Positions 7,184 through 53,316 of a stretch of DNA of 64,000 nucleotides are shown here, piece after piece. Each line of letters begins with the position of its first letter. Position 1 is the first letter of the stretch. A program made the position numbers and the translations under genes. The stretch lies in the NCBI GenBank assembly GCA_964504365.1, contig CAZDDW010000004.1, positions 14,214 through 78,213 on the forward strand, given 5' to 3'. The notes under the pieces were generated by a model, which worked only from the letters and a program-made list of their open reading frames with translations, searched no databases and had not been told where the DNA came from. Source of the DNA: an uncultured Gammaproteobacteria bacterium (GTDB lineage Bacteria > Patescibacteriota > Patescibacteriia > UBA9934 > CAZDDW01).

Positions 7184-7858
7184 TTAGCTCCCGATCAGGA
7201 CGGAGATGTCCATCGGGTCGTTGCCCTGGGGGAGGACCCTGACGAAGCGTCCAGAACGAAGCGTCCGGTACCGCGGAGGCTCATCCGGAGAGAGGCGCGG
7301 CAGCTCGACTAGTAGGTCGACGTAGATCGTGGCCGTGTAGCGCTTCGAACCGCGCTCGTAGGCGTCGTCGAAAACGACCGTGAACAGGCCCCCGTTGGGG
7401 ATCGGTGTCGGCAGGCCGACGTTGATGTCGTGCCCGAGATCGTTCCGGTAGACACCGGCCACACCAGCGTCCAGGAGGTGTCCGATACCCATCCCAACCG
7501 GCTTGCCGTAGTACACGGTGTAGCCGTAGGAGGGCGTGACCATGGCCAGCAGGGGCTGCTCGACCTGGGCCGGTTCACCTTCATGCAAACGGATGGTGAC
7601 CACCTCGTCGTCCGCACGCGGCGGTGCGCTCGGCTCGGCAACTCGCTCGAACTCCATCGTGGCCATGCGGGCCTCGGCGTCGACGTAGAGGTCGCTGTAG
7701 AACAGGATGGCGCACTTCTCGGCATTGCGCTTGCCAGCCAGGCCGTGTTCGGCACAGAAGGCGTCATCCGGCGTGGGAATGCCGGACATGTCCTGTGCTG
7801 TTGCGACCGGAGCCGCAATCAACACGATCAGTACGAAAATGATTCGAATCGTATCCAT
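7184..7858 (-). CDS. hypothetical secreted protein, GC-rich island 1
   Basis: long ORF in about 65% GC DNA; N-terminal signal peptide IIFVLIVLIAAPVATAQD; no recognisable domain. Confidence 0.5.
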   Translation of the reverse strand: MDTIRIIFVLIVLIAAPVATAQDMSGIPTPDDAFCAEHGLAGKRNAEKCAILFYSDLYVDAEARMATMEFERVAEPSAPPRADDEVVTIRLHEGEPAQVEQPLLAMVTPSYGYTVYYGKPVGMGIGHLLDAGVAGVYRNDLGHDINVGLPTPIPNGGLFTVVFDDAYERGSKRYTATIYVDLLVELPRLSPDEPPRYRTLRSGRFVRVLPQGNDPMDISVLIGS

Positions 7859-7860
7859 TT

Positions 7861-8502
7861 CTATTCCTCGAGCAGTTCTCCCAGGCTCCGCAGAGTCCGG
7901 GCGGTTTCGTGGTCTGTGGTTCGCAGTTCACCGTCTGTGTCCTGCAGCTCTTCGATCTCCCGATCGTGTGCATCGAGTCGCTGGAGCACTCCGCTGACGT
8001 CGGTCGGTTCGACCGACAGATGGACACTACCACCCTCTTCGACGTCAGGCGCCACATCCTCGCTGATGTAGATCCGGAAGATCTGCTCCCCAGGACTCAC
8101 ATCCTCACGCTCGACCCGCACTTCCTGGCCACCAAAGGCAGCACTGGTAGTGTAGGCGGCAGCGGATGGACCGGTCACACGTGTGCCCTGGGCGTTTCCG
8201 ACCATGGCACCATTGACCAGGACCTGACCGTTGACACCAACGATCGCTGACCCTTGGCTGAAGCTTGCATCCGAATTGACCGGATCCACATGACTGACGA
8301 ACTGGCAGTACTGCCACTCGCCGGTTTCCCGACAGAGCTCGGCCATCTGCGCGATGTTCGTTGCTGCCCCAGCGTCCTTGCCAACGAGCTGAGCCTCTTC
8401 CAAGACCAACTGACCTGTGTCATTGGCCCTGAGTTCCGCTCGGCTCAGGCAGCCTGTTACGGCGAGCACCAGGCTCACCAACATGATCAAATTCACTCTC
8501 AC
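7861..8502 (-). CDS. hypothetical lipoprotein, GC-rich island 1
   Basis: signal peptide with lipobox-like LAVTGC; 3-nt gap to downstream ORF (operon); no recognisable domain. Confidence 0.5.
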   Translation of the reverse strand: MRVNLIMLVSLVLAVTGCLSRAELRANDTGQLVLEEAQLVGKDAGAATNIAQMAELCRETGEWQYCQFVSHVDPVNSDASFSQGSAIVGVNGQVLVNGAMVGNAQGTRVTGPSAAAYTTSAAFGGQEVRVEREDVSPGEQIFRIYISEDVAPDVEEGGSVHLSVEPTDVSGVLQRLDAHDREIEELQDTDGELRTTDHETARTLRSLGELLEE

Positions 8503-8660
8503 TGTCTTTCCTCTCCCGACATAAAGTCGATTTGTCCGTAAGTCTGTTGGTTTAGTTCTGAAAAGTTCACTATTTTATTTCTTTTTTGACGCTTAAATAT
8601 AGCACGTTTTTGGCTTTTTGTCAACCAGAATAGGCTTATTTTATGTATATTTAAGCTTAG

Positions 8661-8732
8661 GGGGTAGAAAGTAGAAGGTTAATAGTAGAAAGAGTCTGAA
8701 TCTTTCTACCTTCTACTTTCTCCTTTCTACTA
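8661..8732. repeat. cluster of 8-mer GTAGAA(A/G)G repeats (3 forward, 3 inverted copies) forming a complex palindrome in the AT-rich spacer inside island 1
   Basis: ggtagaaagtagaagg...tagtagaaagag...tctttctaccttctactttctcctttctac. Confidence 0.6.
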
Positions 8733-8740
8733 AAGTAAAA

Positions 8741-8781
8741 GACGGCCACCAGATGGTGACCGCCGTTGAGCGTATACGAGT
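8741..8781 (-). terminator. intrinsic terminator after the 856-aa ORF
   Basis: minus-strand ACGGCGGTCACCAtcTGGTGGCCGT hairpin followed by CTTTTACTTT directly after stop. Confidence 0.5.
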
Positions 8782-11352
8782 CTATTCCAGACTGGCCTCG
8801 AGCCGCTCCAGATTGCTCCAGAACTGCTTGGCCTTGTCCGAACGCTCGGGCAAAGAACCCGTCTGTGTGGGGGAATCCGAGGCGACGGGGGTGTTGTCCT
8901 CGGTTTCGTTGTTGGTGGGATCGATCGTCTCGTCGACGTTCGCGTCCTTTTCCCTCTCTTCCAACCACTCTGCGTAGTCTTCCGAGGCCGTGTCGTAGGT
9001 CCAGTTGGCAGCCACGTAGATGTTGGCCAGGAGCGGGTAGAAAACCATGACGCAGACGAGGAGAATCAATGCAACTACACCAGCAACGGTTCCAGCGCCA
9101 CCTGCAACACCCTTTACCCAGGCATTGTCATCGTTGGAGAGCAGACCCCAGGCCAGACTGACCAAGGACCCCCCAAAGAAGAAACAAAGGACGATCAGGA
9201 CGATCAGACCAAGAACGAAGATGCTCCAATGGACATGAAGTCCTTTGAAGACTGCTCCGAACACGGACTTGGGCCCGTGCTCCTTGACCTTGGCTGTCAG
9301 CACCGCTGCACCAACATCATCGACCTCGAGATCCTTCGGGGTGCTCACCACCGGTGTACCGTTCCAGCGCACCTTCCACTTGCGACCCTGCTCGTCGACT
9401 GACAGCACTTTCGCGCCGCGTGGCAGACAAACCGTGCCCACACCTCGTGCGTCATCGCAGGGAACCAGGGTTCCTGCCGCCTGAGCCTTTGCTGCTGGCG
9501 ACTCACTGACCCAGACTCTGTCCTGGTAATCCGTCACCAGGAAAGCGCGCTCCTCGTCGCTCAGGCCGTACTGCGGCGTGTAGCCGAAGTTCGAAGCCGG
9601 AGTATTCGGAAGCATGGCGTAGATCGGAACCAGCGCAACCGCGCCACCGACCATGGCCACCCGAGCCATCACCGCGAAGAACCTGGCCGTTCCACGAGCC
9701 TGCTTGAAGGCGAAAATGGAACCATACCAGCTGTTCGGGTCTCGATCGACCCAACCAGAGGCAGCCACCGTGCTCGGCGCTGCGTAGAAGAAGAACAGGA
9801 AGGCGCTGGCCATTGCGACCATGCAGATGTGATCGTAGCCGAGAATCCAGTTATTGAACATCGCTGTCAGAATCAGCCCAGTCTCGACCAGGATGATCAA
9901 AGCAATGCCAATACCAGTGTTGCGAGCGTGTTTGCCTCGCTCCTGCTCCGACCCCAACTCACTGTCACCTGTCAGCTTTTCCAGCTGTACATAAGCCACC
10001 TGACCTAGCTTGGTGCTAACGTCAGCGACGTGAGCAGCCAGATCGATTCCGCCCTGGATCAAGTACCCCAAGGACCACGGAATTATGGCCATGAACAGAC
10101 CACCGAACGCGTTGGCGCCGATGGAGATCAGCGGATGAAGATCGGTTGCGAAGAGCAAGACGATCCCACTGACCCACATGGAAAAACCGATGACGAACAA
10201 GGCAATAAGGCCAAAGACCACGCTTCGACCGTCGCCTCGAGCGAACTGGACCAGCTTGTCGCCGGCACTGTCAGACGCACCTCGACTGAAATTGACCACC
10301 CGAGTCCAGATGTTCATCCGGTCGGCCACGTCTGCCACTCTTGCCGTGTTCAGCGACCCTTCAGGCTCGAGAAGACCACGGAAACTCTGGACCACCAGAC
10401 CGATGCGGTCAGGGTTGTCCACGCCGGTGTAGCGGCGCTGAATTCCGTCCTTGTCTCCATCTTTGCCAACCAAGTTCATTGTTGCCAAGTGGTCTTCGAT
10501 GGCCTTGATCACCTTTGCCGGCGCGGGCCTGTTCATGCCGTTGCGGATGAAGAAGGAGTCCTCATGACCACCATCATCACGCCACCTCAGCTCTTCTAGA
10601 ACCGCGTGCAACTTCGTGTGCGCATCTCTGGAGAGTTGCTCGAAGGCCGCCTTGACCTTCTTGCTCGGCTCAGGCAGGACACCCATGCAGTGAGGGCACG
10701 GCTGCAGGCTGAGCTGATTCATGGCCGTGTCGTAGTCGATGTAATCGACGGAGTGACCAAACTGCGGAGTATCCGGGATCTGAGGTGCGTTTCTGCCCCT
10801 CTTCGGTGCATTACGCTTCGACAGGAAGTCCATCACCTTGTTCGTGAGCAGACTCTCATCGATGTGCTCGTGCACGGCTGGGCAGGTGCAGGCAGCCTGA
10901 TCGTCTACGCGCACTGCGGTGTGTACGTAACGACCAAGATAGCCAAGCCCCTTGACCCGAGCCACCACCGGAACCAATCCAGTGAAGTCGTCAGGCAGGT
11001 CACCGATGTCCGAACCGACCAGCGCGTCGGCACCACCAGAAGAGATGGCCTCGAGCAGCCGGTTCAGCTTTTCCTCGGCCTGGATGCGCTCTTCCGCGCT
11101 AACGAACAGGTCGTCAGGCAACGGAAAGTCGATCGCGCTCCCAAGACCACGCACTCCCCAGCTAAGCCACTTCACGGCTGCCGGGTTTTTCTGCAGCTTC
11201 TCGAGCGCTTCCCCGAACATCGTGGAAGTCATTTTCTCGGAGCCGTCGCGAATTCCGTCCTCAAGGAAAGGCCAGATGGCCTGCCCAGCGAAACTAGTGA
11301 AGAATGTCACCAGCGGAGCAACCAGCCCCTTTACCATGTCGTTAGTAACCAT
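8782..11352 (-). CDS. large hypothetical polytopic membrane protein (856 aa), GC-rich island 1
   Basis: single long ORF in about 60-65% GC DNA; multiple predicted TM segments in the middle and C-terminal thirds, CxxC/CxHC pairs, acidic C-terminal tail; no recognisable family. Confidence 0.55.
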   Translation of the reverse strand: MVTNDMVKGLVAPLVTFFTSFAGQAIWPFLEDGIRDGSEKMTSTMFGEALEKLQKNPAAVKWLSWGVRGLGSAIDFPLPDDLFVSAEERIQAEEKLNRLLEAISSGGADALVGSDIGDLPDDFTGLVPVVARVKGLGYLGRYVHTAVRVDDQAACTCPAVHEHIDESLLTNKVMDFLSKRNAPKRGRNAPQIPDTPQFGHSVDYIDYDTAMNQLSLQPCPHCMGVLPEPSKKVKAAFEQLSRDAHTKLHAVLEELRWRDDGGHEDSFFIRNGMNRPAPAKVIKAIEDHLATMNLVGKDGDKDGIQRRYTGVDNPDRIGLVVQSFRGLLEPEGSLNTARVADVADRMNIWTRVVNFSRGASDSAGDKLVQFARGDGRSVVFGLIALFVIGFSMWVSGIVLLFATDLHPLISIGANAFGGLFMAIIPWSLGYLIQGGIDLAAHVADVSTKLGQVAYVQLEKLTGDSELGSEQERGKHARNTGIGIALIILVETGLILTAMFNNWILGYDHICMVAMASAFLFFFYAAPSTVAASGWVDRDPNSWYGSIFAFKQARGTARFFAVMARVAMVGGAVALVPIYAMLPNTPASNFGYTPQYGLSDEERAFLVTDYQDRVWVSESPAAKAQAAGTLVPCDDARGVGTVCLPRGAKVLSVDEQGRKWKVRWNGTPVVSTPKDLEVDDVGAAVLTAKVKEHGPKSVFGAVFKGLHVHWSIFVLGLIVLIVLCFFFGGSLVSLAWGLLSNDDNAWVKGVAGGAGTVAGVVALILLVCVMVFYPLLANIYVAANWTYDTASEDYAEWLEEREKDANVDETIDPTNNETEDNTPVASDSPTQTGSLPERSDKAKQFWSNLERLEASLE

Positions 11353-11503
11353 TTCGAACCTCCGTACGCACAGGCTTTACCTGCCGCACTTGTTTGTGTT
11401 GAATTTAACGTCCAATTTTCAGACGAGTTATATTGAAAAGATCCAGAGAAGTTTTACCTCCCCCGAATCCGAATTTGAACTAAAGTGCAGCAAAAGCTGC
11501 GGA

Positions 11504-11555
11504 TACGGAGAAGGGAGAAATATACCACTTTTGAGCCTTTTTGTCAACCTTGAGA
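11504..11555 (-). promoter_or_regulatory. sigma70-type promoter for the 856-aa ORF: TTGACA-N17-TATATT (minus strand), immediately after the upstream terminator T-tract
   Basis: minus strand reads ...cgcttattttttgtgtctcaaggTTGACAaaaaggctcaaaagtggTATATTtctc. Confidence 0.5.
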
Positions 11556-11600
11556 CACAAAAAATAAGCGAGGTATCTTAGCCTCGCTTATTCATAGTTC
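11556..11600 (-). terminator. intrinsic terminator after FAD-oxidoreductase gene
   Basis: minus-strand AAGCGAGGctaagataCCTCGCTT hairpin followed by ATTTTTTGTG. Confidence 0.55.
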
Positions 11601-11604
11601 AAGC

Positions 11605-12786
11605 TTATTTAAGCTTAGGTATCCCCCGCTTATTTTGAATTGCTTCGGTTAAAATCCTGCGGTCTTTATTCCGTCCCAAAATAGCCGCCCCAACAACCTT
11701 ATCGTTTCGAACAAAAATCTGAGTTAAAGCACCTTGTTCCACGCTTCCCCAAACAACGACCTCATCCGCGGCCCGCTTGTCCGTGTCTCCGATAAATGTA
11801 ATATCCAGTCCAAGCAAACTAATTGCATATGAAGACACTTGTTCATGCGCCGTTCGTTCACCTGCCAGTGTTTTAGCAACAGTCCGACCCTGCATCATGG
11901 CCCGACCCCAATTACCTGCACAATACTGACGGTCAACAATTGGATCAAAACTCTCAGCAATATCACCAACAGCAAATACGTCCGTAATATTGGTTTCCAA
12001 AAACTCATCTGTTTTAATTCCCTGATTGATTTCGACCCCTGAGTCTTGAACCCAAGATAGTTCTGATGAATTTCCAATTGCCACTCCAAGAATCGAACAG
12101 GGTAGATCACCCTTGGTTGTATCAACGGCTTCCAGATTTTGTTCACCACAAGTATTTGTCATTTCGGCCTCAGACAAAACTTGAACATTCTCTTTTTCAA
12201 GATGATCCTGAATTAACTTACCGGCCTGACGATTTAAAATCTTATTCCAAAAATGTTTACCACGAAAAGCAACAACAGTATCAATATTATAATTTTGAAA
12301 AACATTAATAAATTCGCAAGCAATAAACCCCCCACCATGAACAACCGCTTGGGTGCGCAACGCATCATGCTTCAGGCCGCTAATCACAGGCAGCATATGA
12401 TCAACATCGTCAATGGTCCAAAAGTAAACCACCCCTTTTGGTTCGCCAGACACTGTCCGCGGCTCAGTTCCACCAGCAATTACCAGCTTGTCGTACGGTA
12501 ACTCACGCGCGTTATCGAGTTCAATAAATTTATTTTTTGTATCCAATCGACCAGCTCTCTGTCCAAGTAATAATTCAATATTCTGATCCTGATACCATTT
12601 CTCAGATTTCAAAAAACACTTCTCCCGCTCGACCTTGCCGGTCGCGTAATGAGGAAGCAGTACCCGAGAATATAGTGGGTGATGTTCTTCAGAAATAATT
12701 GTAATATTGGCTTCGGAATCAAGCTTGTGCAGCTCTTCGGCACAGCTTGTGCCAGCAATCCCACCACCAACGATGATAACCTGCAT
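11605..12786 (-). CDS. FAD-dependent pyridine nucleotide-disulfide oxidoreductase (ferredoxin/rubredoxin-reductase or NADH-oxidase-like)
   Basis: N-terminal MQVIIVGGGIAGTSCAEE Rossmann FAD motif, second GG motif (VVHGGGFIACEF); start placed at ATG 12786 (1 nt after ferredoxin stop) rather than ORF-track 12819. Confidence 0.75.
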   Translation of the reverse strand: MQVIIVGGGIAGTSCAEELHKLDSEANITIISEEHHPLYSRVLLPHYATGKVEREKCFLKSEKWYQDQNIELLLGQRAGRLDTKNKFIELDNARELPYDKLVIAGGTEPRTVSGEPKGVVYFWTIDDVDHMLPVISGLKHDALRTQAVVHGGGFIACEFINVFQNYNIDTVVAFRGKHFWNKILNRQAGKLIQDHLEKENVQVLSEAEMTNTCGEQNLEAVDTTKGDLPCSILGVAIGNSSELSWVQDSGVEINQGIKTDEFLETNITDVFAVGDIAESFDPIVDRQYCAGNWGRAMMQGRTVAKTLAGERTAHEQVSSYAISLLGLDITFIGDTDKRAADEVVVWGSVEQGALTQIFVRNDKVVGAAILGRNKDRRILTEAIQNKRGIPKLK

Positions 12787-12787
12787 G

Positions 12788-18420: not shown

Positions 18421-19140
18421 ATGAGTGACGCTAAAGAAGGTGTACAAACAGAAATAGGCCCAGCCACTTCTGAATCTAAGGATGCAGGCAATGAGACCGT
18501 TGTCACACCCGAAAGCCCCTCTCAGGCCTTTGAAAATATATCTGAGGCTGAACACCATCTAATGGCCGCAACCAATACATGCAGAGAGTTTGCAGACAAG
18601 GGCCAACATGGATTGGGCTCGCTTGAAAATGTACTTAGTTTTGGAAATGATATGACTGGTGAAATAGTCTTCAGATTTCAGCAAGAACTATCACAAGAGG
18701 TAGGACCAAGACAAATACAGCTTCGCCAAGATCTTGACCAACTAGAAAACATGCACCGTGACACCATGTCAGAAATTAGTGAAGCAATACAAAATATTAA
18801 TGAAACCAATGAATCCGAGGCCGTTGTACAACTAAAAAATAGACTGGGACAGAGAAAAGAAGAGGTGTCACAAGCCTTAGATTCATCTCGTGCTTTGCGT
18901 CTTGAAATTGCCCGAGCCTTTGAAAACAACACAAATCAAGCCATGTTCAAATTACAGGAAGGCGAGCAAAAGTTTGGAGACATGAGCGGTACCATGCTTT
19001 CAGAATTTGCAAATATCTCCAGAAGGCTTTCATCCGAGATGGCAGAAGACAATGTTAAAATTAGCGGCCTCAATGAAGCTTTTCGACGTGAATTAGAAGA
19101 AAAATTATCAAGACTAGAAGCAGCTCTTGGCTCCATCTAG
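18421..19140 (+). CDS. hypothetical acidic coiled-coil protein
   Basis: ORF directly after PBP gene (ORF-track start 18409 overlaps PBP stop; ATG 18421 used); no recognisable domain. Confidence 0.4.
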   Translation: MSDAKEGVQTEIGPATSESKDAGNETVVTPESPSQAFENISEAEHHLMAATNTCREFADKGQHGLGSLENVLSFGNDMTGEIVFRFQQELSQEVGPRQIQLRQDLDQLENMHRDTMSEISEAIQNINETNESEAVVQLKNRLGQRKEEVSQALDSSRALRLEIARAFENNTNQAMFKLQEGEQKFGDMSGTMLSEFANISRRLSSEMAEDNVKISGLNEAFRRELEEKLSRLEAALGSI

Positions 19141-19204: not shown

Positions 19205-20344
19205 TTATTGCTTGATCGGCATGACTATATACTGATAACCCTCAACATCTTTTGGACTAACCAAGCACGGATTTGATCCATCAATTGATCGGAACAAAAC
19301 CTGATCCGTAGACATGGCATTCAAACCATCTAAGAAATATCGATAATTAACTGTTATCGTGTTTTCATTTCCAGTTACATCAGCACTACAGTTTGCTGTA
19401 TTTTCACCACGTGTCGCATCAACCGCAGTGACCACCAGCTGTTTACCAGCAGGATCAACTCGCAAGGTCACATCAAACAAACCGGTTCGTGAGAACAAAC
19501 TTGCTGTCTTTACAGACTTAATCAGATCAGCTCGATTTAATACAGCTTCTGATTGAAAATCTTTTGGGATGATCTGAGCGTAGTCTGGATATTCACCTTC
19601 GATTGTTCGAGAAGTTAGTTCTACTGACCCAAAAGTAAAGACCACTTGATTATCAGTTAGCTGGATCTGCACTGTATCTGGTGACTCCACCCCATCTTTA
19701 AACAACGATAATGTTCTAGCAACCTCTCCTAGTGCCCGAGCTGGAATAATCACATCAAACGGCTCTTCGGCTGAGCCCTGACCTAAAGTAACAGTACTCT
19801 CGGCTAATCGATAACTATCTGTTGCCGCTAAAGTTAAATTATTCTTTCCAGCAGCTGGATTATGGAACCTCATAGAAACACCAGCAAGCTCAGGGCGTGA
19901 CTCGTTGCTAGCAACCGCAAATAAAACCTGGCTCAGGGCCATACGGAGAGCCTCAGCAGGCACTGAGTATGAACGACCTCCTGAAACTGGGGGTACCAAA
20001 GGGAACTCTGAAGCAGCCATTCCTTTTATTTTGGTTTTGTTTCCTCCACACTCAATTTGCAATACATCCCCCTCAATCAATAATTCAACATTCTCGTTAG
20101 GTAGCAGGGCCACATAATCAAAGAATAATTTTGATGGTATTGTAAATTCCCCCTCTTCTTCCACTTTTCCTCGCACCAGACAAGAGGTGGCTGTTTCTAG
20201 GTTCGTGGTTGTCATTCTCATTGAACCACCTTCTGTCTTCATCAGAACATTGTTTAATATTGGAAGGTTTACATTCTTACCAGCCAGGCTACTTGTGATG
20301 GCTAATCCTTGGTGCAAGTTATCTCGTGTACAGGATAGTTTCAT
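19205..20344 (-). CDS. dnaN: DNA polymerase III beta subunit (sliding clamp)
   Basis: MKLSCTRDNLHQGLAITSSLAGKNVNLPILNNVLMKTEGG... three-domain clamp length 379 aa; immediately downstream of dnaA. Confidence 0.9.
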   Translation of the reverse strand: MKLSCTRDNLHQGLAITSSLAGKNVNLPILNNVLMKTEGGSMRMTTTNLETATSCLVRGKVEEEGEFTIPSKLFFDYVALLPNENVELLIEGDVLQIECGGNKTKIKGMAASEFPLVPPVSGGRSYSVPAEALRMALSQVLFAVASNESRPELAGVSMRFHNPAAGKNNLTLAATDSYRLAESTVTLGQGSAEEPFDVIIPARALGEVARTLSLFKDGVESPDTVQIQLTDNQVVFTFGSVELTSRTIEGEYPDYAQIIPKDFQSEAVLNRADLIKSVKTASLFSRTGLFDVTLRVDPAGKQLVVTAVDATRGENTANCSADVTGNENTITVNYRYFLDGLNAMSTDQVLFRSIDGSNPCLVSPKDVEGYQYIVMPIKQ

Positions 20345-20599
20345 AGTTAGTAAGTAATTTATATATTTTTATAGTTGTAATAGTAGGGCCTGTGGACGGA
20401 GTTGATAAGTCGGAAAAAAGGCTCAAGTAATAGACGAATTATAAGTGGTCAATGTGGGTTACTTGTTTTTCAAACATGGTGAAATCTGTGTATGAATTTT
20501 GGGTGATATTTTTTGATAATATTATTGACATTGTTCCCTCTTTTTTCACACAACCCTATCCCCTGCCCATCATTCACTTACACACATTCTTTCGACAAT
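20345..20599. promoter_or_regulatory. dnaA-dnaN intergenic region with AT-rich stretch and degenerate DnaA-box-like 9-mers (possible second oriC half / DUE)
   Basis: taatttatatatttttatagttgtaatag AT tract; cctGTGGAcgg, gTTGATAAg, TTATaAgtg. Confidence 0.35.
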
Positions 20600-21970: not shown

Positions 21971-22151
21971 AATATTTTTGTTTTAATTCATTTTTCTATC
22001 TCAGTCACTATATACTAAATATCCACATGTGGGCAAGTGGGTGGATAGTGGGAATTTAGGTTGATTTTTTGGGGATAGTGTGTGTATAATGGGGCTCATT
22101 ACCTGATGGGTATGGCCAATCACTTTCATAAGAGCTAAAATATAGACACCT
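21971..22151. promoter_or_regulatory. putative oriC / dnaA promoter region with convergent DnaA-box-like motifs
   Basis: atATCCACA (22019-22027) and gGGTGGATAg (rc cTATCCACC, 22041-22050), ggGGATAGtg (22071-22080) between divergent dnaA and rpmH. Confidence 0.55.
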
Positions 22152-22307
22152 ATGCCAAAGAGAACATATCAACCTAAGAAGAGACGCAGTGTAAAGGTGC
22201 ACGGATTTCGTAAAAGAATGTCGACTAAAAGTGGACAAAATGTCATTAAGAGTCGTCGTGCTAAAGGACGAAAAAAACTCACTGTTTCCTTAAAAGGTAA
22301 AAAATAA
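22152..22307 (+). CDS. rpmH: 50S ribosomal protein L34 (not in ORF track: 51 aa)
   Basis: translation [51 protein letters not shown] matches L34 consensus; immediately upstream of rnpA. Confidence 0.85.
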
Positions 22308-22318
22308 GCCCAGGAGCT

Positions 22319-22660: not shown

Positions 22661-22661
22661 T

Positions 22662-22928: not shown

Positions 22929-22938
22929 GCGCGATTTT

Positions 22939-38669: not shown

Positions 38670-38700
38670 AAAAGCACCCGCTGTGAAGCGGGTGTTTGAG
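38670..38700. terminator. bidirectional intrinsic terminator (CACCCGC/GCGGGTG) between convergent CNNM gene and island-3 ORF
   Basis: aaaaGCACCCGCtgtgaaGCGGGTGtttgag. Confidence 0.6.
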
Positions 38701-39918: not shown

Positions 39919-39959
39919 TTTGTCAATAAAAAGACCCGACAACAAGTGTCGGGCGAGGT
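39919..39959 (-). terminator. terminator/-35 cassette copy A (CCCGACA/TGTCGGG hairpin + TCTTTTTATTGACAA)
   Basis: ttgtcaataaaaagacccgacaacaagtgtcgggcgaggtt; 40/41 identical to 41166-41206. Confidence 0.7.
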
Positions 39960-39966
39960 TGTTCGA

Positions 39967-41165: not shown

Positions 41166-41206
41166 TTGTCAATAAAAAGACCCGACAACAAGTGTCGGGT
41201 GAGGTG
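41166..41206 (-). terminator. terminator/-35 cassette copy B, then -10 TAATCT 17 nt downstream of TTGACA
   Basis: ttgtcaataaaaagacccgacaacaagtgtcgggtgaggtg; minus strand ...tctttttaTTGACAagccgtgggcacgatgaTAATCT. Confidence 0.7.
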
Positions 41207-42244
41207 TTAGGACCAGTGCCGCTCTGGTACGTAGAACTGCATCAGTTCCTCGATGATTTTTGGGTCACTATCGATGATTTCCAGGCCACGCTGACTTGGA
41301 AATTCCTGGTGGGCTTTTTGGAAGGCCTGGATGACCCGTTCGGGTGTGGGTTCACCACCAGGCCAGCATAGTTGGTTGTGGACTCTGAAAAGCCGGAACT
41401 CAGGGTGCTCGCCCCGGTCGACATGCACGTAGTGGCCAGCCGCCAATCGTTTCAGCTCCTCGTTGGTTGCTCCAGGGATGTGCCAGTAGAGGTTGCTTGA
41501 CCAGTAGGCTGCTTGTCCCAGCCTGCCGTGGGCCCACTCAGGCACCGGGTCTCCCCCTGCGAATAGTGGTTTGAATCCATGAAAGCGCAGGAACCATTCG
41601 ATTGGCGAGGGCCAGTACCGAAGGGCAGGGCCAGTACCACTGTTTGGGATTGGGGTGAAATCATTCCAGTAAGGGGTGAAACGGAAACTGTGGATTGCTG
41701 CCGCACCAAGGACCAGGCTGGTCGGGTAGGCGTCATGGGCAATGCTCCACAAAATCAGTCGCGGTGGATGTTTCTGGTCAAGGGTGTTACGCACCGGCTG
41801 GTTGAGAAGAGCTCTCCCAGCTCTGGTTTGGTCGTGTGGAAGGGGCAGGGTGATGACGATCCGCCCTTCTACGATTTCCAAGAGGTCATTGTCTCTGAGG
41901 CGTCCAATCCATTTGCGGAACATGTCCAGCTGAGGGTGTTCTCCGATTGGGCACGATGCTGATTCCCGAATCCAGGTATCCGGATCGAGTTGAAGGATGT
42001 CGTTGAGCACGATCTGAAACCCAGTCACCTTGTCCGGGCAAACGTGAATGACTCGGCGCAGTCCGGCAAGCCAGTCAGCAAACACGGTCGTGTCACCGGC
42101 CTCAGCCCTCGGGACCACTTGGTTGTTCCACATGTCATTGAACAGCTTGTTGAGGTGGTCAAGGCCGCGCTCGGCAGCGCGCATGATTTTACGATCGAAA
42201 CTACGTAGATTACTTCGATCCCATTTGTCACTTTGTCTACTCAT
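41207..42244 (-). CDS. hypothetical protein (345 aa), GC-rich island 3
   Basis: ORF in about 57% GC DNA, Trp/His-rich; no recognisable domain. Confidence 0.45.
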   Translation of the reverse strand: MSRQSDKWDRSNLRSFDRKIMRAAERGLDHLNKLFNDMWNNQVVPRAEAGDTTVFADWLAGLRRVIHVCPDKVTGFQIVLNDILQLDPDTWIRESASCPIGEHPQLDMFRKWIGRLRDNDLLEIVEGRIVITLPLPHDQTRAGRALLNQPVRNTLDQKHPPRLILWSIAHDAYPTSLVLGAAAIHSFRFTPYWNDFTPIPNSGTGPALRYWPSPIEWFLRFHGFKPLFAGGDPVPEWAHGRLGQAAYWSSNLYWHIPGATNEELKRLAAGHYVHVDRGEHPEFRLFRVHNQLCWPGGEPTPERVIQAFQKAHQEFPSQRGLEIIDSDPKIIEELMQFYVPERHWS

Positions 42245-42358: not shown

Positions 42359-44089
42359 TTAGTGTCCGTTCTGGGCGCTAGCCAGGTCGTGGTACAGGCC
42401 GCCATGATTGAAGAGTTGTTTGTGCGTTCCCTCTTCAACAATCTTGCCCTTGTCCAAGACGATAATGCGGTCCGCATTTTGGATCGTGCTCAGACGGTGG
42501 GCGATCAGGATCATGGTTCGGCTGCCTTGCAGCTTAGTGATCGACTCATGGATCAGCTGCTCTGACAATGGATCCAGGTGGGACGTGGCTTCATCAAAGA
42601 TGAGCACGGCTGGGTCGGCGAGAATCGCGCGGGCAATACCCACGCGCTGCCGCTGTCCACCAGAAAGTTTAAGACCGCGCTCACCAACAAAGGTGTCGTA
42701 TCCCTTTTCCAACTGCTCGACAAATTCGTCTACGTTGGCAATCTCAGCTGCCCGACGAATTTCACCCATGGTTGCTTTCGGGTTTCCGTAAGCAATGTTC
42801 TCGGCTACAGTAGAATCAAAGATTTCTACTTCCTGCGGCACGATGGCGATGTGGCTGCGATAGGATGCGAGATTTAGATCACATACATCGTGTCCGTCAA
42901 TCGACACCTGTCCGCTACACACGTCATAGAACCGAGGGATCAGGCGGGCCAGAGTACTCTTGCCTCCACCAGATGGTCCACAAACACCAATGGTTTCTCC
43001 GGCAGCGACATCTAGATCAACTCCGTGCAGACCATTGTTAGTATTTGGGTAACAGAAGTGCACGTTGTCGAAAGCAATACGCCCTTCAGGTGAACGCAGT
43101 TTTTTGGCTGTTGGTTTGGAAGTGATCTCTGTTGGCTCATTCAAGATGTCTGATAGTCGCTCCACGCTTTCTCCTGCATCAACGATACGTTCATACAGAT
43201 GAGAAAAGACGTGTAGACTGTCAAAGAGCTTGTTTGACAACAGGAGTAGGAAGACCAATGTTCCCACAGTGATACTATCTTGAGTTAACTGATATACAGC
43301 AACACCGAGAATGGCTACACGACCAAGATTTACAACACCAGCCTGATACCAGTCGAAGTTAATCATGGTGTACCACTCTTTCAGCTCATCGCCGAAGATC
43401 AATTTTTTCAGCTTGCCAAAGGTGCTGTATTCTCTCGGCTCTTGAGTGAAGGACTGGACACTTTGGACGTTCAGCACCGCCTGAGTCATCATGTGATCTG
43501 CCTTTTCGTAGCGGTCAAAGCGCAGTTGACGCATTGGGCGGATGGTTTTGTCTAGTCTGAATACCGAGTACAGGTAGACAGTAACAACAACCATAAAAAT
43601 TGGTGCGACCTGCCAATCCATGATCAGGAAGATGCCGAAGATGAGAACCATTTCAAACAATACGGGGGAAACATCAAAGAAACACATAATAATGATTTCT
43701 ATTGCCTTCCAAGTGCCTCGGGTTATCTTGCCCATTTTGGCCCCGGTGTTTTCACGGACGTGGTATCCATATGACAGCTCAAGCAGCTTTTTCATACAGC
43801 GCTTTGGAAGATCTCTTTCCAAAATCAAGCTTGTCTTGAAAATGTTTTTGTACTTGATGTTATTCAGTCCAGTAATAATGAACTGAAGTGCCAACATGGT
43901 TGCTGTCAGGATCCAGATCATTTGGACCGACCCCTCGTTCCAGTTTTGGAACTCATCCAGGATCAGCTTGAAGATGTAAGGTCCGATCAGCAGGAAGACC
44001 TGAACAATTCCAATCCAAACGAAAGTGGTAACAATATTTCGTTTGTATGGTTTGATCAATTGCCAGTACTTGCTCCAGAATTCGAACAT
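42359..44089 (-). CDS. ABC transporter, fused permease/ATP-binding protein (MsbA/exporter family)
   Basis: 6-TM N-domain; Walker A GPSGGGKST, signature LSGGQRQRVGIARAIL, Walker B LIFDEATSHLD, H-loop. Confidence 0.9.
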   Translation of the reverse strand: MFEFWSKYWQLIKPYKRNIVTTFVWIGIVQVFLLIGPYIFKLILDEFQNWNEGSVQMIWILTATMLALQFIITGLNNIKYKNIFKTSLILERDLPKRCMKKLLELSYGYHVRENTGAKMGKITRGTWKAIEIIIMCFFDVSPVLFEMVLIFGIFLIMDWQVAPIFMVVVTVYLYSVFRLDKTIRPMRQLRFDRYEKADHMMTQAVLNVQSVQSFTQEPREYSTFGKLKKLIFGDELKEWYTMINFDWYQAGVVNLGRVAILGVAVYQLTQDSITVGTLVFLLLLSNKLFDSLHVFSHLYERIVDAGESVERLSDILNEPTEITSKPTAKKLRSPEGRIAFDNVHFCYPNTNNGLHGVDLDVAAGETIGVCGPSGGGKSTLARLIPRFYDVCSGQVSIDGHDVCDLNLASYRSHIAIVPQEVEIFDSTVAENIAYGNPKATMGEIRRAAEIANVDEFVEQLEKGYDTFVGERGLKLSGGQRQRVGIARAILADPAVLIFDEATSHLDPLSEQLIHESITKLQGSRTMILIAHRLSTIQNADRIIVLDKGKIVEEGTHKQLFNHGGLYHDLASAQNGH

Positions 44090-46845: not shown

Positions 46846-46849
46846 ATAT

Positions 46850-47460
46850 TTGGCGATTCTTATATCTAGAGTATAGGTTAAATTATTCTACTTGGGAAGA
46901 CCCATTCTGTCAAGATATAAGTTTTTAGGCAAACAGAAAAGGGGCATTGCCGCTATATATATAATTTCAAACGGTGCCCCTAAGAGGGACCCGAGTCGCC
47001 CTTGCGGGCACCGGCACTGAAGACAAGTGTTTGTCTGCACTGCTGGTACCCGTTCGGTGTCTCAAAGATCCAAGATTGGACTTGCTACACTACCTTCTTA
47101 TGGTCTTGCCTGCGGATGGCTGCTATAGCCATATAATTGCCGGCTGACCTAGATGTTTGCTTTTGTTTTTGTTTTTGTGACGTGCTATCAAGAGAGTAGC
47201 GTAGTGGGGTGTTTCCCGAAAGAAAGCTCAAAGAGCCGTGGGGACCTTCGGAAAACCTCCCTGTATCCAGGGTGTTTAAAAGAACTACTTGATCGTGTTT
47301 ATAGTTTACCATATTTTAAGCCCAAAGTCAATTCTTGATTATTGACTAAAACTAAATAAAAAATAGACTGTTGATAATGTCTGGTACCGAGCTGTGGGTA
47401 ATTTTTGTGTTCAGTTATCCCCTGAAAAACGGGTTTTTCCCATACTTATCCACAGTTTTG
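46850..47460. ncRNA. about 600-bp ORF-poor, hairpin-rich intergenic region; candidate structured ncRNA(s), identity unresolved
   Basis: nested stems GGTGCCC...GGGCACC (46975-47020), GACAAgtgtTTGTC, CCGAA...TTCGG / CCCTGtatcCAGGG (47215-47275), (TTTTTG)3 tract at 47157-47178; no convincing protein-coding ORF. Confidence 0.3.
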
Positions 47461-48696
47461 TTAAAAACAAGCACGAAAAGTGTTCATATTACCTTCTTTG
47501 TCCAAACCTACCTGGACAAAGCGATTGAATGATTCAATGGGGCTGTTGATGTTGGTGTGTTTCGAGTTCAGGACCTGTAAGAGCGTTAGAAGGTTAACTG
47601 GGTCAATGGTCATGGTTGGTTTGGTAATGCATTCTGTGCTTGCATCAGTGCTGATGCTTTGGAATGGCCCATTTTCAGACTCTGAAGTAATCACAAATAA
47701 AGTTGTGTTGCTTTCTGACATGGTTGTCAAACGATTACTACTCAGAATAGTTGCGTTTCCTAAGGTTGATTCTGATATTTGAATCGATCCGGTGTTTGAA
47801 ATTATTTCTGCTAGTCTAGTGTTATCATCCAGGGTCTTTATCGCTAGATCAGGTTCACTGTATGAAGCTAAGTATTGATGTAGTTGCTTTAGCTCATCAT
47901 TAGGGATTTGGTAGTTAACTGATAAGCTTATTCTCTGCGAATTGGTTTCTTGATTAAGCATAAATACAATTTGGCCACCGTTTGATTGCAAATAATTAAG
48001 TAATGGGGCTGGAACCGAGTTTAAATAGGTGGGCACTTGCGCACCAGCAGAGATTTCTGCGGCCAGAACAGAGTCATGTGGAATAAGGTTGGGTAATGTT
48101 GAGGACTCAAATTTTCCAAGTTTAATATTGAATCCTTGCCCCGTGAGCTTAATTGGAGAAGCACCTGTCTCGTCTTGGTTAACTTCAGTGAGTTGTCCTA
48201 TTGTTCTGGGGTTGATTCGGTTAATCAAGCTTAATTTGTGCTTATAATTTGTTGTTTCATCAATATTTATGTTGATGGTTGTGGTGCTTGAGCTTGGCTC
48301 ATTAACGACAAGTCCATGGGTAAGTAGTGCTTGTTTAACATTTTTAGGCAATTCTCCGTGAAATGCCAGCGATCGATCCCCATTTTTTTGAATAAATATT
48401 GATAATTCACCACGCACGTGTGGGGCGATGGATTGTAAAGATAGGCTGCTGTTAAGTATGGGGGCATGAGAAAAACGATCTAGTAGAACAGGCCAAGTAT
48501 TTTTTGTGGGAGTTAAGTGAATTATGGCTTTGGTGTTTTGTGGGGCATATGCAGCCAAAGTGTCTCTTGTAAACCAGTTATGGATAAGCATACATCCAAG
48601 CAACAACAAAACAACAAAACCAACCATATTCCAAACAGCTCGCCGTTTATGGCGAGCTGTTGTTCTACTATGTAATGGAATGTTTAATCGAGTCAT
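47461..48696 (-). CDS. hypothetical membrane-anchored Ser/Thr/Asn-rich protein (411 aa)
   Basis: N-terminal TM anchor VGFVVLLLLGCMLI; start overlaps pnp stop by 1 nt (operon); no recognisable domain. Confidence 0.5.
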   Translation of the reverse strand: MTRLNIPLHSRTTARHKRRAVWNMVGFVVLLLLGCMLIHNWFTRDTLAAYAPQNTKAIIHLTPTKNTWPVLLDRFSHAPILNSSLSLQSIAPHVRGELSIFIQKNGDRSLAFHGELPKNVKQALLTHGLVVNEPSSSTTTININIDETTNYKHKLSLINRINPRTIGQLTEVNQDETGASPIKLTGQGFNIKLGKFESSTLPNLIPHDSVLAAEISAGAQVPTYLNSVPAPLLNYLQSNGGQIVFMLNQETNSQRISLSVNYQIPNDELKQLHQYLASYSEPDLAIKTLDDNTRLAEIISNTGSIQISESTLGNATILSSNRLTTMSESNTTLFVITSESENGPFQSISTDASTECITKPTMTIDPVNLLTLLQVLNSKHTNINSPIESFNRFVQVGLDKEGNMNTFRACF

Positions 48697-51022: not shown

Positions 51023-51607
51023 TTATTTTTTTGTTCTTGGTTTTTTAGATTTTGTTTTTCTCTGTGTAACAATCAAGTAGCGCCGCTTGTTTTCTGATAG
51101 GTTGGTATATTTGTCGACCGCTTCGATCAGACGTGAAGAAGTTGTTTCACGAAAAGCTGACACTTCAACTATGCGACCGCGATTTTTCATGTACTCAACC
51201 AATGGAATAAAGTCTCCATCTCCTGAAACCAAGACGACCACGTCGACCATGTCTAGCATCTTGATTGCGTCAACTGCAATCCCCACGTCCCAATCTGCTT
51301 TTTTCAAACCAGACGCGTACTCCATCAGCTCTTTTTCCTTGGTCTCGATTCCAAGATTTTTTAAGGCCTCGAAAAAAGGAGTTTCTTCACCAGTCTTAGT
51401 GCTCACCACATAAGCGATGGCGCGAACCAATTTACGGTCACCAACTGCGTCTTTAACAATGTTTCCAAAATTGACCTTGCGGTTAAAAACATTGCGGGCT
51501 GAATAGTACATGTTTTGGGTGTCGATGAAGACAGCGACACGCTGGTCAGGACGAGAGATCATATTTTTGTTTTTATATGTCAGAACCCGCCTCAAAGAGG
51601 CGGGCAA
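51023..51607 (-). CDS. NYN-domain (LabA/DUF88-like PIN-fold) protein
   Basis: VAVFIDTQNMYYS...VVLVSGDGDFIPLV pattern of NYN/LabA nucleases; sits between rpsO and pnp. Confidence 0.75.
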   Translation of the reverse strand: MPASLRRVLTYKNKNMISRPDQRVAVFIDTQNMYYSARNVFNRKVNFGNIVKDAVGDRKLVRAIAYVVSTKTGEETPFFEALKNLGIETKEKELMEYASGLKKADWDVGIAVDAIKMLDMVDVVVLVSGDGDFIPLVEYMKNRGRIVEVSAFRETTSSRLIEAVDKYTNLSENKRRYLIVTQRKTKSKKPRTKK

Positions 51608-51613
51608 TAAACA

Positions 51614-51889
51614 TTATTTCAATTTCAAGGCCTCTTTTAACTTGGTATACGCTTTTTCATCTTCTCGTTCCAAGTATTTAAGAAGGCGACGTCGCTCTGA
51701 AACCTTTTTAATCAGTCCTCGGCGACTTGAGAAGTCTTTTTTGTGCTCTTTCAAGTGTTTGGTCAGATCAATAACCTCAGCGGTTAGAATAGCGATCTGT
51801 ACTTGAGGAGAACCAGTGTCAGACTCGTGAGTCCGATACTTCTCAATAATCCTCTGCTTCTTTTTTGCAGTAAGCATACTGTGTGACAC
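51614..51889 (-). CDS. rpsO: 30S ribosomal protein S15
   Basis: ...HESDTGSPQVQIAILTAEVIDLTKHLKEHKKDFSSRRGLIKKVSERRRLLKYL... canonical S15. Confidence 0.9.
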   Translation of the reverse strand: MSHSMLTAKKKQRIIEKYRTHESDTGSPQVQIAILTAEVIDLTKHLKEHKKDFSSRRGLIKKVSERRRLLKYLEREDEKAYTKLKEALKLK

Positions 51890-52021
51890 GCAGACCCTAG
51901 AAAACGGAGCTTAAACCACGATCCAAGATATACGTCATTAATTCTTAATACGTCGCTTAATATAGCAGAGCATTGATATTGTGTCAAATATATAAGGCAA
52001 CTAAAAACCGCGAGAGTTACG

Positions 52022-52066
52022 TCCTCTCGCGGCGTGGTTGCTCTACGGTCAGTCTAGCGCAGGTTG
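52022..52066 (-). terminator. intrinsic terminator after island-4 ORF (CCGCGAGAG/CTCTCGCGG + TTTTTAGTTG), followed by TTGACA
   Basis: minus strand cgCCGCGAGAGgacgtaaCTCTCGCGGtttttagttgcc...tttgacacaa. Confidence 0.6.
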
Positions 52067-52068
52067 AG

Positions 52069-53316
52069 CTAGAGGCGCATCGGTCCATTCGGACCGATGA
52101 TGATCGGGCCACCCTCACCCGGGCCGCCGAATCCGGCGAGAGCCTCGGCCAGTTCCGGGGGCATGGAGCCGAGCGCCTCGGCCATGCCAGCGGACATGTC
52201 ACCACCCAATCGGGCTTCCCAGGTCTTGCGGGCCTCGGCCGGAGCCTCGGCGTAGCGTTGCTCTTGGTCATCCTTGTCCAGGGCCATGTCGATGGTCAGC
52301 ATCTGCTGCAGGGCGTGGATGCCCTGTTCTGGCGAAAAGCCGTAGCGCTCCATGAGATCCATGATCATCAGGAGGCCATTGATCACGTTCTCCAGTCGCT
52401 TGCCATTGCCGTGGCTGATGGAGCCGTGCGGCAGCGGGTAGCAGTTTTCGGCCAGGCACTGCTCGAAGCCGAATCCCTCGCCGTCGAAGCCTTCGGGAAG
52501 CTGGAACTCGCGCACGGCTGCCATCAGCACCGCGGTATCCGCGGGCATGGTGACCTTGGTCAAGTCTTCGCGCAGCGGCGCGATCATCTCGTCGCCGAGC
52601 GCCTTGGTCAAGGTGACCAGGTTCCGTTCGGCCTGAGCACCTGTTATCGAGCCGTAGCTCTGGTCGCCGATGAGGATCTGGACGCGACTGAAGCCGACCA
52701 GGCTCAGCAGCGGATCCTTGATGGCCTCCAGGCGCGGCGCGCTCATGGCGGCCTGTTCGCGCAGGTGTGCGTTGAGCGTGTCCGTCCGCTGCCGCTCCTC
52801 CGCGGCCTTGCGGCGGTCCTGCAGCGCATGCGCATCCAGGGCCAGGTCTGCGGCCATGAGCAGCTTGAAGCCGTGGATGCTCTGCTCGGGCGAGATCACG
52901 CCACCCTCGGCCGCCTCGGCCAGCTGTAGCCAGGCCGTGCTCAGGTGCTCGACCGGGATGCGGCCGCCGGGATGGTCCAGGAGACCGTGAGGGATCGGGT
53001 TGCTGCAGTCGCATGGGATGAAGTCGAAGCCTTTGCCATCGAAGCTGTCGGGTAGCTCGATCGCGTTCAGAGCCAGAGCTACTGCTGTGGCGTCTGCGGC
53101 CAAACCGTCGAAGTTGTCGACGGTCGCGCGCGCCTCGGTCAGCATCTCGGTGGTGACGTTGAACTGCGTCATGTGTTCCTCGACTTCGTCCAGGATCGCG
53201 TGCGCTTCGACCTTGTGCGCACCCTTGGCACTGTCACCGGGCACCAACACGACCAGGCGCTTCAGCCCGGCCAACTTGAACATCGGGTCGTTCCCGATCG
53301 TTTCGATTCTCAGCAT
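52069..53316 (-). CDS. hypothetical protein (415 aa) with internal tandem duplication, GC-rich island 4
   Basis: about 65% GC ORF; two homologous halves (LPDSFDGKGFDFIPCDCSNPIPHGLLDHPGG...EQSIHGFKLLMAADLALD vs LPEGFDGEGFGFEQCLAENCYPLPHGSISHGNG...EQGIHALQQMLTIDMALD); Gly/Pro-rich C-terminus. Confidence 0.5.
   Translation of the reverse strand: MLRIETIGNDPMFKLAGLKRLVVLVPGDSAKGAHKVEAHAILDEVEEHMTQFNVTTEMLTEARATVDNFDGLAADATAVALALNAIELPDSFDGKGFDFIPCDCSNPIPHGLLDHPGGRIPVEHLSTAWLQLAEAAEGGVISPEQSIHGFKLLMAADLALDAHALQDRRKAAEERQRTDTLNAHLREQAAMSAPRLEAIKDPLLSLVGFSRVQILIGDQSYGSITGAQAERNLVTLTKALGDEMIAPLREDLTKVTMPADTAVLMAAVREFQLPEGFDGEGFGFEQCLAENCYPLPHGSISHGNGKRLENVINGLLMIMDLMERYGFSPEQGIHALQQMLTIDMALDKDDQEQRYAEAPAEARKTWEARLGGDMSAGMAEALGSMPPELAEALAGFGGPGEGGPIIIGPNGPMRL

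Follow-up and report, generated by a model that had tools for sequence, protein, structure and literature searches.

The window analyzed here, a stretch of 64,000 nucleotides (nt) from an uncultured bacterium (contig CAZDDW010000004.1 of assembly GCA_964504365.1, positions 14,214 to 78,213 of the forward strand), holds four GC-rich coding blocks set among conserved core genes. Its GC content is 46.4%, and 43.6% outside the blocks, and a 1-kb profile rises four times, at approximately 7.0-11.5, 25.5-31, 38.5-42.5, and 52-53.5 kb. As a baseline we used 41 core open reading frames (ORFs), which have a GC of 0.433 ± 0.027 (range 0.38-0.49) and a GC at third codon positions (GC3) of 0.388 ± 0.047. 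Measured against these, eight ORFs, all on the minus strand, are outliers with z = 4.6-8.1 for GC and 4.9-9.5 for GC3, so that the GC-rich coding blocks proposed in an initial annotation of the window are real. They are 7184-7858 (GC.63, GC3.80), 7861-8502 (GC.60, GC3.67), and 8782-11352 (GC.58, GC3.71) in block 1, 25560-26732 (GC.58, GC3.68) in block 2, 38702-39805 (GC.57, GC3.67), 39967-41034 (GC.57, GC3.70), and 41207-42244 (GC.56, GC3.62) in block 3, and 52069-53316 (GC.65, GC3.84) in block 4. In every named frame of these ORFs GC3 exceeds GC1 and GC1 exceeds GC2, with strong three-base periodicity, an order that is the signature of real coding sequence. Their description as ORFans also holds, with 90%-identity clusters of one to four members and few family matches in Pfam, NCBIfam, PHROG, and PADLOC. 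The junctions of the blocks are 99.9-100% identical in 12 contigs that come from independent samples and assemblers, and an assembly artifact was rejected on this ground. ORF 8657-8968 (103 amino acids, aa), which overlaps the 3′ end of the 8782-11352 gene and the terminator/spacer region, was taken as spurious.

The elevation is uneven in block 2, where the ORFs at 26829-27203, 27214-27822, and 27926-31240 reach only.50-.535 GC (z 2.6-3.8), and the sigma-70-family gene at 31259-32527 (minus strand;.47/.44) is not GC-rich. The GC-rich part of this block consequently stops near 31150, and the original picture of a uniformly GC-rich block 2 survives for 25560-26732, is weakened for the three mildly raised ORFs, and fails for the sigma-70 gene. 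Spacers adjoining the GC-rich ORFs, which had been described as AT-rich, have a GC typical for the genome (0.37-0.44, with 0.51-0.52 in the two spacers within block 3), and what stands of that description is that they carry terminators and TTGACA promoters in the manner of the core genes. TTGACA-N17-TATNNT occurs 11 times in the window, where 0.19 occurrences are expected, and it lies upstream of core genes (rpsO, tRNA-Arg, and others) and of GC-rich ORFs alike. Hairpin and T-run terminators are found 3′ of nearly every ORF. In essence, coding units that look compositionally foreign are embedded in native-style regulatory DNA, as had been proposed. The leaders of the GC-rich genes in blocks 1, 3, and 4 measure 94-167 nt, as against 5-56 nt for most core genes, and a 34-nt module (repeat family D2; 79-88% identity) is common to the promoters of the large block 1 gene, of the two-gene unit downstream of it, and of tRNA-Arg.

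Block 1 is the block for which relatives are most informative. Its large gene, at 8782-11352 on the minus strand, encodes an 856-aa multi-pass membrane protein with approximately seven membrane-spanning segments, referred to as BIG from here on. It is followed by a 213-aa predicted lipoprotein (7861-8502, minus strand, lipobox LAVTGC) and a 224-aa protein with a predicted signal peptide (7184-7858, minus strand), and these predictions agree with the secreted, lipoprotein, and membrane products first assigned to the block. The BIG promoter (11519-11547, minus strand) is a TTGACA-17-TATATT sequence with a TG extension, whose module recurs at 8596-8624 and 53614-53642. Between it and the gene lies a 5′ leader of approximately 165 nt (11353-11518, minus strand, GC ~0.42), with a GTGCGGCAGG..CCTGTGCG hairpin and an ACGGAGG ribosome-binding site in its 3′ part. 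The leader matches nothing in Rfam, and its hairpin may be a cis-regulatory RNA. The terminator hairpin of the BIG gene is at 8741-8764 (minus strand), and the unit formed by 7861-8502 and 7184-7858 has a promoter at 8596-8624 (minus strand), of which ~45 nt are almost identical in the related contig L100, and a terminator at 7144-7171. Structure prediction for BIG, made from an eight-sequence alignment, gave a mean predicted local distance difference test score (pLDDT) of 55, and a Foldseek search of the PDB with it returned nothing below E = 0.09. Five tandem small T4SS_pilin genes (PF18895) on the plus strand, at 4733-7121, adjoin the block; the array and its position are kept in L100 and L110, and the membrane, lipoprotein, and secreted products of block 1 may belong to the same surface apparatus as the pilins.

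An exhaustive search of 1.84 billion representative proteins recovers seven members of the BIG family. Every homolog with a readable contig, in L100 (GCA_054038955.1), L102 (GCA_043807295.1), L109, and L110, lies directly downstream of IscS-NifU-Fer4-Pyr_redox, and contig P0023 shows the same upstream neighbor beside its BIG homolog, making BIG a syntenic ortholog in at least five other species. Two further GC-rich ORFs follow BIG in L100 and L110, and then comes the PF18895 pilin array, as in the window; the L102 and L109 contigs stop at the BIG gene or just past it, so that what follows is not visible there. The BIG homologs keep their length and membrane topology, and nucleotide-level conservation of the promoter and of the leader's 3′ part is seen in L100 (6851-7090), L102 (9768-10000), L109 (9753-10000), and L110 (4681-4898). 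The block 1 promoters and leader are kept almost base for base, while the ORFs downstream of them are only 24-37% identical or unrecognizable: the small block 1 ORFs, that of the 213-aa lipoprotein among them, show no detectable similarity to the ORFs in the same position in L100. The suggestion that GC-rich genes occupy pre-existing regulatory slots is thereby supported, with a promoter and leader conserved across species and hyperdivergent or replaced cargo behind them.

The GC-richness of BIG is shared by its orthologs. Its GC3 is.71 in the window against ~.39 for the local core,.76 against ~.47 in L100,.57 against ~.34 in L102,.84 against ~.48 in L109, and.80 against ~.52 in L110, an excess of +0.22 to +0.35 over the local core in these five genomes. 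The two small block 1 ORFs have a GC3 of.75/.85 in L100 and.81/.85 in L110, and the spacers have a GC of.41-.44. Between the window and the BIG-carrying species, core proteins are 47-78% identical and BIG is 25-32% identical, with BIG distances that are star-like and match those of core genes. At four-fold degenerate sites, the two large core genes IscS and Pyr_redox show an identity of.28-.43 and a small NifU sample (n=45) one of up to.53; for BIG it is.21-.46, where independent sequences would give.22-.31; values this close to the random expectation mean that synonymous sites are close to saturated between these species. Orthologous synteny together with the regulatory DNA in relatives indicates that the block 1 cassette is ancestral in the clade. 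Because it is GC-rich in each species for which DNA is available, with four-fold sites nearly saturated, its GC-richness has been maintained in place and is not a foreign remnant; it is therefore a maintained, gene-specific equilibrium. Foreign composition is expected to fade with residence time, and the BIG orthologs do not show such fading.

The remaining blocks were compared through the conserved genes around them. The closest named homologs of ComM are in Candidatus Uhrbacteria (72-79% identity), and PNPase is 54-58% identical to that of Buchanan-, Uhr-, Magasanik-, and Falkowbacteria metagenome-assembled genomes. Judged by these closest named relatives, the organism would be an Uhrbacteria-like Patescibacterium. 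Saccharibacteria, to which the initial annotation had tentatively assigned it, do not appear among the top ComM or PNPase matches, and that identity is not supported. The backbone runs from xerD across a slot to rpsO-NYN-pnp, continues through dksA-lspA-comM to the ABC transporter, and passes a second slot to (RF-1)-M23-RNaseHII-PPase and a third to tig. It is kept in L086, L103, L105/L106, and L107, and it is recognizable in more distant Patescibacteria; among relatives with long enough contigs, none is closer than ~79% ComM identity. In the PPase/tig slot, which holds block 2 in the window, L086 has only 121 nt between tig and PPase, with block 2 absent, and L103 and L107 each have one unrelated ORF (GC3.73 and.74, respectively). 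Block 3 is absent from the ABC/M23 slot of L086, L103, and L107, and L105 has a His_Phos_1 gene there (GC3.71). The xerD/rpsO slot is always filled, with one or two ORFs that have no useful family assignment and a GC3 of.64 and.72 in L103,.71 and.66 in L105, and.60 in L107; most of these are homologous to one another, secreted, and Cys-rich, and they are unrelated to the cytoplasmic 415-aa protein that occupies the slot in the window.

Taken together, the slot ORFs of L103, L105, and L107 have a GC3 0.15-0.32 above the local core, and more distant Patescibacteria (L006, L008, L088) also have GC-rich ORFs in the same gaps. Comparison of the window cargo with the GC-rich cargo of relatives in the same slots, by phmmer and BLASTP, revealed no remote similarity. 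Presence/absence variation of each block had been anticipated, and this is what blocks 2 and 3 show (absent from L086, L103, and L107), as does the block 4 position with its different genes; block 1, by comparison, is syntenic in at least five species. Not every variable gene is GC-rich: relatives also have AT-rich ones, as in the L105 region with an IS200-like Y1 transposase. Segments with outlying high GC were present, by a rough survey, in 8 of 26 Patescibacteria loci and in 2 of 54 other loci, a comparison that is biased, several of the Patescibacteria loci having been fetched through the GC-rich gene itself. A separate observation concerns the related 1.0-Mb chromosome OZ246408.1 (L103), where a ~200-nt repeat with 83-85% identity is found in three long spacers bordering variable slots (3702-3899, ~11560-11757, and 18661-18857), possibly a small element that is mobile or connected with recombination.

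Block 2 contains, from its downstream end, a DGQHR-domain (DndB/DpdB-like) protein at 25560-26732 on the minus strand, a 124-aa protein (26829-27203, GC.50) and a 202-aa protein (27214-27822, GC.535) without family match, both on the minus strand, and an SNF2-like helicase fused to a methyltransferase-like C-terminus (27926-31240, minus strand, GC.51-.52, GC3.53). The DGQHR protein matches TIGR03187 at 76.8 bits, above the cutoff of 58.85, over profile positions 1-265 of 276; its Pfam DndB score of 25.2 is under the gathering cutoff of 29.1. A word-indexed search found a single homolog of it, with 35% identity, on the unrelated contig L099, where it is likewise a GC3 outlier (.88 versus.62 in its own contig) with an AT-rich TTGACA spacer upstream. 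Promoters precede the DGQHR ORF (26768-26796) and the 202-aa ORF (27850-27878). The C-termini of the 202-aa and 124-aa ORFs resemble each other, and apart from this short shared stretch no paralogy was detected between blocks. The helicase assignment rests on phrog_62 (E 5e-13), with a weak Methyltransf_11 match (E 0.0015) and a negligible DpdE match (13.3 bits). Since the GTG at 31240 of the longest, 1104-aa ORF lies inside the gene's own predicted promoter, the true helicase start is probably near 31147 (~1070 aa). By these matches block 2 looks like a defense-like module. Like Dnd and Dpd modules, it pairs a DGQHR protein, scoring above the TIGR03187 cutoff, with a large SNF2-like helicase as neighbor, but it differs from them in the methyltransferase-like fusion and in its partners: dndACDE, dpdA (TGT-like), and dpdC were found neither among the block 2 ORFs (Pfam, NCBIfam, and PADLOC scans) nor elsewhere in the window. 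A Dnd or Dpd DNA-modification system was rejected for block 2 on account of these missing partners and the low DpdE score. The neighboring sigma-70 gene lacks a counterpart among the syntenic relatives examined, and its true start is probably near 32494, given that the ATG at 32527 lies inside its own predicted promoter. Its protein has a ~130-aa C-terminal extension and a PADLOC match to MzaA (E 1.4e-15) that is probably owed only to shared sigma regions.

Block 3 consists of three minus-strand genes, for a 345-aa protein (41207-42244), a 355-aa protein with N-terminal membrane segments (39967-41034), and a 367-aa protein (38702-39805), whose terminator is at 38675-38694. Neither these proteins nor that of block 4 match a family in Pfam, NCBIfam, PHROG, or PADLOC. 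A 51-nt junction module (repeat family D3), made up of a terminator hairpin, a T-run, and a TTGACA -35 box, lies at 41166-41216 on the minus strand, with a second, 88% identical copy at 39920-39970. Its presence at both internal junctions suggests that the block 3 cassettes were joined or duplicated via the shared module. The adjacent ABC transporter (42359-44089, minus strand) is a conserved ortholog with 62-67% identity in relatives and an intermediate GC3 of.55, and its ortholog exceeds the core GC3 by 0.11-0.17 in all four genomes compared.

Block 4 is a single minus-strand gene (52069-53316) for a 415-aa, internally duplicated cytoplasmic protein; the duplication, noted from the outset, scores 181 against 31 ± 4 in shuffles. 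The word-indexed homolog search found no homolog of this protein, and its structure prediction was unusable (mean pLDDT 40). The promoter (53462-53490) and a ~146-nt leader together span 53317-53490 on the minus strand, directly downstream of the tRNA-Arg terminator, and the block 4 terminator is at 52007-52033. The left border of the slot is formed by tRNA-Arg(tct) (53527-53603, minus strand) and an Xer-like tyrosine recombinase (53639-54595, minus strand) that is 57-62% identical even in distant Patescibacteria. As both are conserved in relatives, they are backbone rather than island. No direct repeat of the tRNA-Arg end was found at block 4, and no flanking direct repeats of at least 11 nt or att-like sequences were found at any block, save for the shared terminator/-35 motif. 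Nor did we see a transposase in the window, or any integrase other than the conserved Xer-like gene. The same 10 nt, TAGCTCAACC (minus strand), occur at 52062-52071, around the stop codon of block 4, and at 53587-53596, in the D-arm region of tRNA-Arg; as ~0.13 such matches are expected by chance, the identity is probably without meaning.

The bias itself extends to all synonymous classes of the GC-rich ORFs. The fraction of C is.70-.91 in pyrimidine-ending two-fold boxes and that of G is.57-.79 in purine-ending boxes, and GC at four-fold sites is.57-.84. C-ending codons prevail (TAC.91, TTC.85, ATC.80, AAC.77) and TTA is absent. This usage is not seen in rpsO, tig, and pnp, core genes that are presumably expressed at high levels. 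GC3 is even along the BIG gene. Leaders and spacers of up to 650 nt keep native GC. That the bias stops at ORF borders speaks against a mutational or conversion effect that is purely regional, provided the spacers are not under constraint. As a control, the syntenic 411-aa gene at 47461-48696 diverges equally fast (27-34% identity) and has a GC3 offset of -.03 to -.12, so that weak constraint alone is not the cause.

Outside donors were sought at several levels, with a 5.8-billion-cluster search covering blocks 2 and 4, the exhaustive search covering BIG alone, and two of the block 3 proteins compared with plasmids, phages, and viral contigs. For the DGQHR protein, the block 4 protein, and BIG, no Actinobacterial or other outside homolog was found beyond a few Patescibacteria contigs. 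The tblastn searches of plasmids and phages (block 4, the block 2 helicase, and two block 3 proteins) and the viral-contig scans (block 4 and two block 3 proteins) were empty. A PHROG scan found a generic helicase only, with no phage genes nearby, and signs of a diversity-generating retroelement were likewise absent, with no reverse transcriptase among the ORFs scanned and no template/variable repeat pairs.

The reading we favor, and to which we give slightly better than even credence, is that the four blocks mark clade-wide hypervariable slots between conserved core genes, filled with cargo that is persistently GC-rich. The slots lie between Pyr_redox and the T4SS-pilin array, between PPase and tig, between the ABC transporter and the M23-peptidase cluster, and between xerD-tRNA-Arg and rpsO. 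Each cassette has a near-consensus TTGACA-17-TAtatT promoter and a leader ahead of one or two ORFs and closes with a hairpin terminator, with the coding parts alone being GC-rich. The cargo is lineage-restricted and very fast-diverging: an envelope set by the pilin array in block 1, a defense-like set in block 2, and cytoplasmic proteins. In blocks 2-4, slot content is gained, lost, and swapped between relatives, and this turnover, which the comparisons show, may proceed by recombination at the conserved flanks. Horizontal transfer may bring in new cargo but would not be the sole cause of its composition. More tentatively, and as something possible rather than probable, we propose that this gene set is held at a GC3 0.2-0.45 above the genome over synonymous-saturating times by a gene-specific, coding-limited process that is independent of donor composition. 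Candidates for such a GC-favoring fixation bias or selection, confined to these coding regions, are selection for GC-rich coding mRNA and GC-biased gene conversion tied to cassette exchange, either of them possibly mixed with continuing import.

Several observations weigh against this interpretation, and most of them speak for recurrent import from an unsampled GC-rich pool (mobile elements, GC-richer Patescibacteria, or host cells), whose ORFs would land behind resident promoters and turn over faster than their composition ameliorates. The shift reaches codon positions 1 and 2 and the amino-acid composition (Lys/Arg down from 1.39 to 0.51) and ends at ORF borders, both of which would be expected of genes imported from a GC-rich genome. 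Blocks 2 and 3 lack counterparts in relatives and block 4 cargo is a non-homologous replacement of theirs; real gene gain therefore occurs, and blocks 2-4 may have been imported recently. The intermediate GC of block 2 could reflect foreign DNA whose composition is moving toward the recipient's, the L099 homolog shows the DGQHR gene as a GC outlier in another genome too, and genomic islands and within-phylum transfer have been reported as common in Patescibacteria (PMC12455944). Long-term maintenance is seen in one gene family only, BIG, with the ABC transporter and the xerD/rpsO family of relatives as supporting cases. The sampled population is clonal, its 12 same-species contigs being 99.9-100% identical, and it yields neither direct evidence of recombination nor within-species variants. 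However, recurrent import does not account for block 1, whose orthologs retain promoter, leader, and GC-richness at saturated four-fold sites and core-like distances, nor for the stable GC3 excess of the conserved ABC transporter ortholog. A donor pool is also not visible among the seven BIG proteins, the readable ones all in the same neighborhood, or for block 4, which has no homolog found, and the blocks lack att-like repeats, a transposase, or an integrase beyond the Xer-like gene. We regard recurrent import as possible but rather unlikely. The initial proposal of an origin from a high-GC donor is not supported, and for block 1 it is contradicted by syntenic homologs with similarly raised GC, the very outcome that had been named as refuting it.

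The other explanations are weaker than import. Translational selection for G/C-ending codons, whether through expression level or a particular tRNA pool, would fit an ORF-limited, gene-specific effect with dominant C-ending codons in the two-fold pyrimidine boxes and without TTA, but the usage is missing from rpsO, tig, and pnp, and the shift extends to purine-ending boxes, four-fold boxes, and the first two codon positions. A translational-accuracy test on the BIG family was negative, and since GC3 is no higher at conserved BIG residues, this argues against selection for accuracy, itself one of the forces that might have maintained the bias; we consider translational selection improbable. The host-to-symbiont route first put forward, from high-GC Actinobacteria into a Saccharibacterium, has composition alone in its favor. 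It conflicts with nearest named relatives among Candidatus Uhrbacteria and other ABY1-type Patescibacteria, with the ancestry of block 1 in the clade, and with the cluster, exhaustive (BIG), plasmid, phage, and viral-contig searches, in which no Actinobacterial homolog of any GC-rich ORF was found, and we hold it to be very improbable. Equally hard to credit is an artifact in the form of a chimeric or contaminant assembly, chance ORFs in GC-rich non-coding DNA, or a passive by-product of weak constraint. GC-rich DNA does yield long shadow ORFs on both strands, but the junctions are identical in the 12 independent contigs, the same pattern recurs in other species, the frames show three-base periodicity, BIG conserves length and topology, the DGQHR protein scores above a curated cutoff, and the equally fast 411-aa gene is not GC-rich.

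Two further features of the window lie outside the blocks. The 615-nt spacer at 46846-47460 (minus strand), between the 411-aa gene and a dksA-like gene, is strongly conserved across species, with counterparts at 8514-9118 in L103, 8514-9120 in L105, and 8488-8846 in L107. It opens with two to three DnaA-box-like CTGTGGATAA motifs and a TTGACT-17-TAAACT promoter (47331-47303), followed by a conserved transcript-like stretch of ~230 nt with CAGGGAGGTTTTCCGAAGGTCCCCAC and a CAAAAACAAAAACAAAAG run. No Rfam family matches this spacer even at E<=1, and the stretch is a candidate new non-coding RNA. At 19205-23323, dnaN and dnaA are followed by non-coding stretches of 348 and 663 nt, and among genes on the same strand the preference for G or C at third positions switches between those left of ~20 kb and those right of ~23 kb, a pattern compatible with a replication origin there. 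All four GC-rich blocks are within ~30 kb of this putative origin.

If the more tentative reading of a gene-specific, coding-limited process is true, a tiny genome would carry a heritable compositional split. Deviant GC is routinely taken as a mark of recent transfer and, in ultra-small host-dependent bacteria, as a pointer to the host; here this assumption fails for at least one block, and if the pattern is general, composition-based predictions of islands and donors in Patescibacteria would be systematically misleading. The locus also offers a test case for what maintains bacterial GC content, be it selection, biased gene conversion, or mutation. The near-consensus promoters suggest strong transcription of the GC-rich cassettes, and strong promoters combined with secreted and membrane products by the pilin array make these genes good candidates for host-interaction and defense functions.

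Our literature search found no description of GC-rich syntenic cassettes, and the cassettes share features with several known systems without coinciding with any of them. Integron cassettes are similar in that single ORFs are captured singly into a resident expression context, and block 3 adds a repeated junction module. In contrast, each cassette here has its own promoter, and the repeated module is a terminator with a -35 box; no IntI-type integrase and no second tyrosine recombinase turned up in the window, where no search aimed at attC sites was made. Block 4 recalls tRNA-linked islands, as it lies directly downstream of the tRNA-Arg 3′ end with a tyrosine recombinase adjacent, deviant GC, and variable content, but it is a single gene, its recombinase belongs to the backbone, and neither a repeat of the tRNA end nor a donor was found. 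The vls locus of Borrelia is a GC-rich antigenic-variation locus in an AT-rich genome, maintained with frequent gene conversion. It shares with the cassettes fast-evolving envelope or secreted-protein genes whose GC is persistently far above the genome average, while the window has no silent cassette arrays or paralogs of that kind, and high GC extends to cytoplasmic cargo in blocks 3 and 4. Phage morons, a term of Hendrix and colleagues, are extra genes with their own promoter and terminator and a deviant composition, placed between two phage genes. The cassettes are likewise self-contained promoter-ORF-terminator units with a composition unlike that of their neighbors, although they lie between chromosomal housekeeping genes instead of phage genes, with position and promoter conserved across species.

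Replacement flexible genomic islands, or hypervariable regions, in the concept of Rodriguez-Valera and Lopez-Perez, are usually AT-richer than the core and consist of multi-gene biosynthetic clusters. As in those islands, the same position between core genes holds non-homologous or hyperdivergent content in relatives, the cargo is often related to the envelope, the surface, or defense, its composition is atypical, and classical mobility genes are absent. The differences are that the cargo here is GC-richer by 0.15-0.45 GC3, that it comes in one- or two-gene units with their own consensus promoter and terminator, and that at least one unit has been passed on vertically without losing its composition. 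Two things are unusual in the window: the cargo exceeds the core in GC, not in AT, and this excess persists in vertically inherited orthologs.

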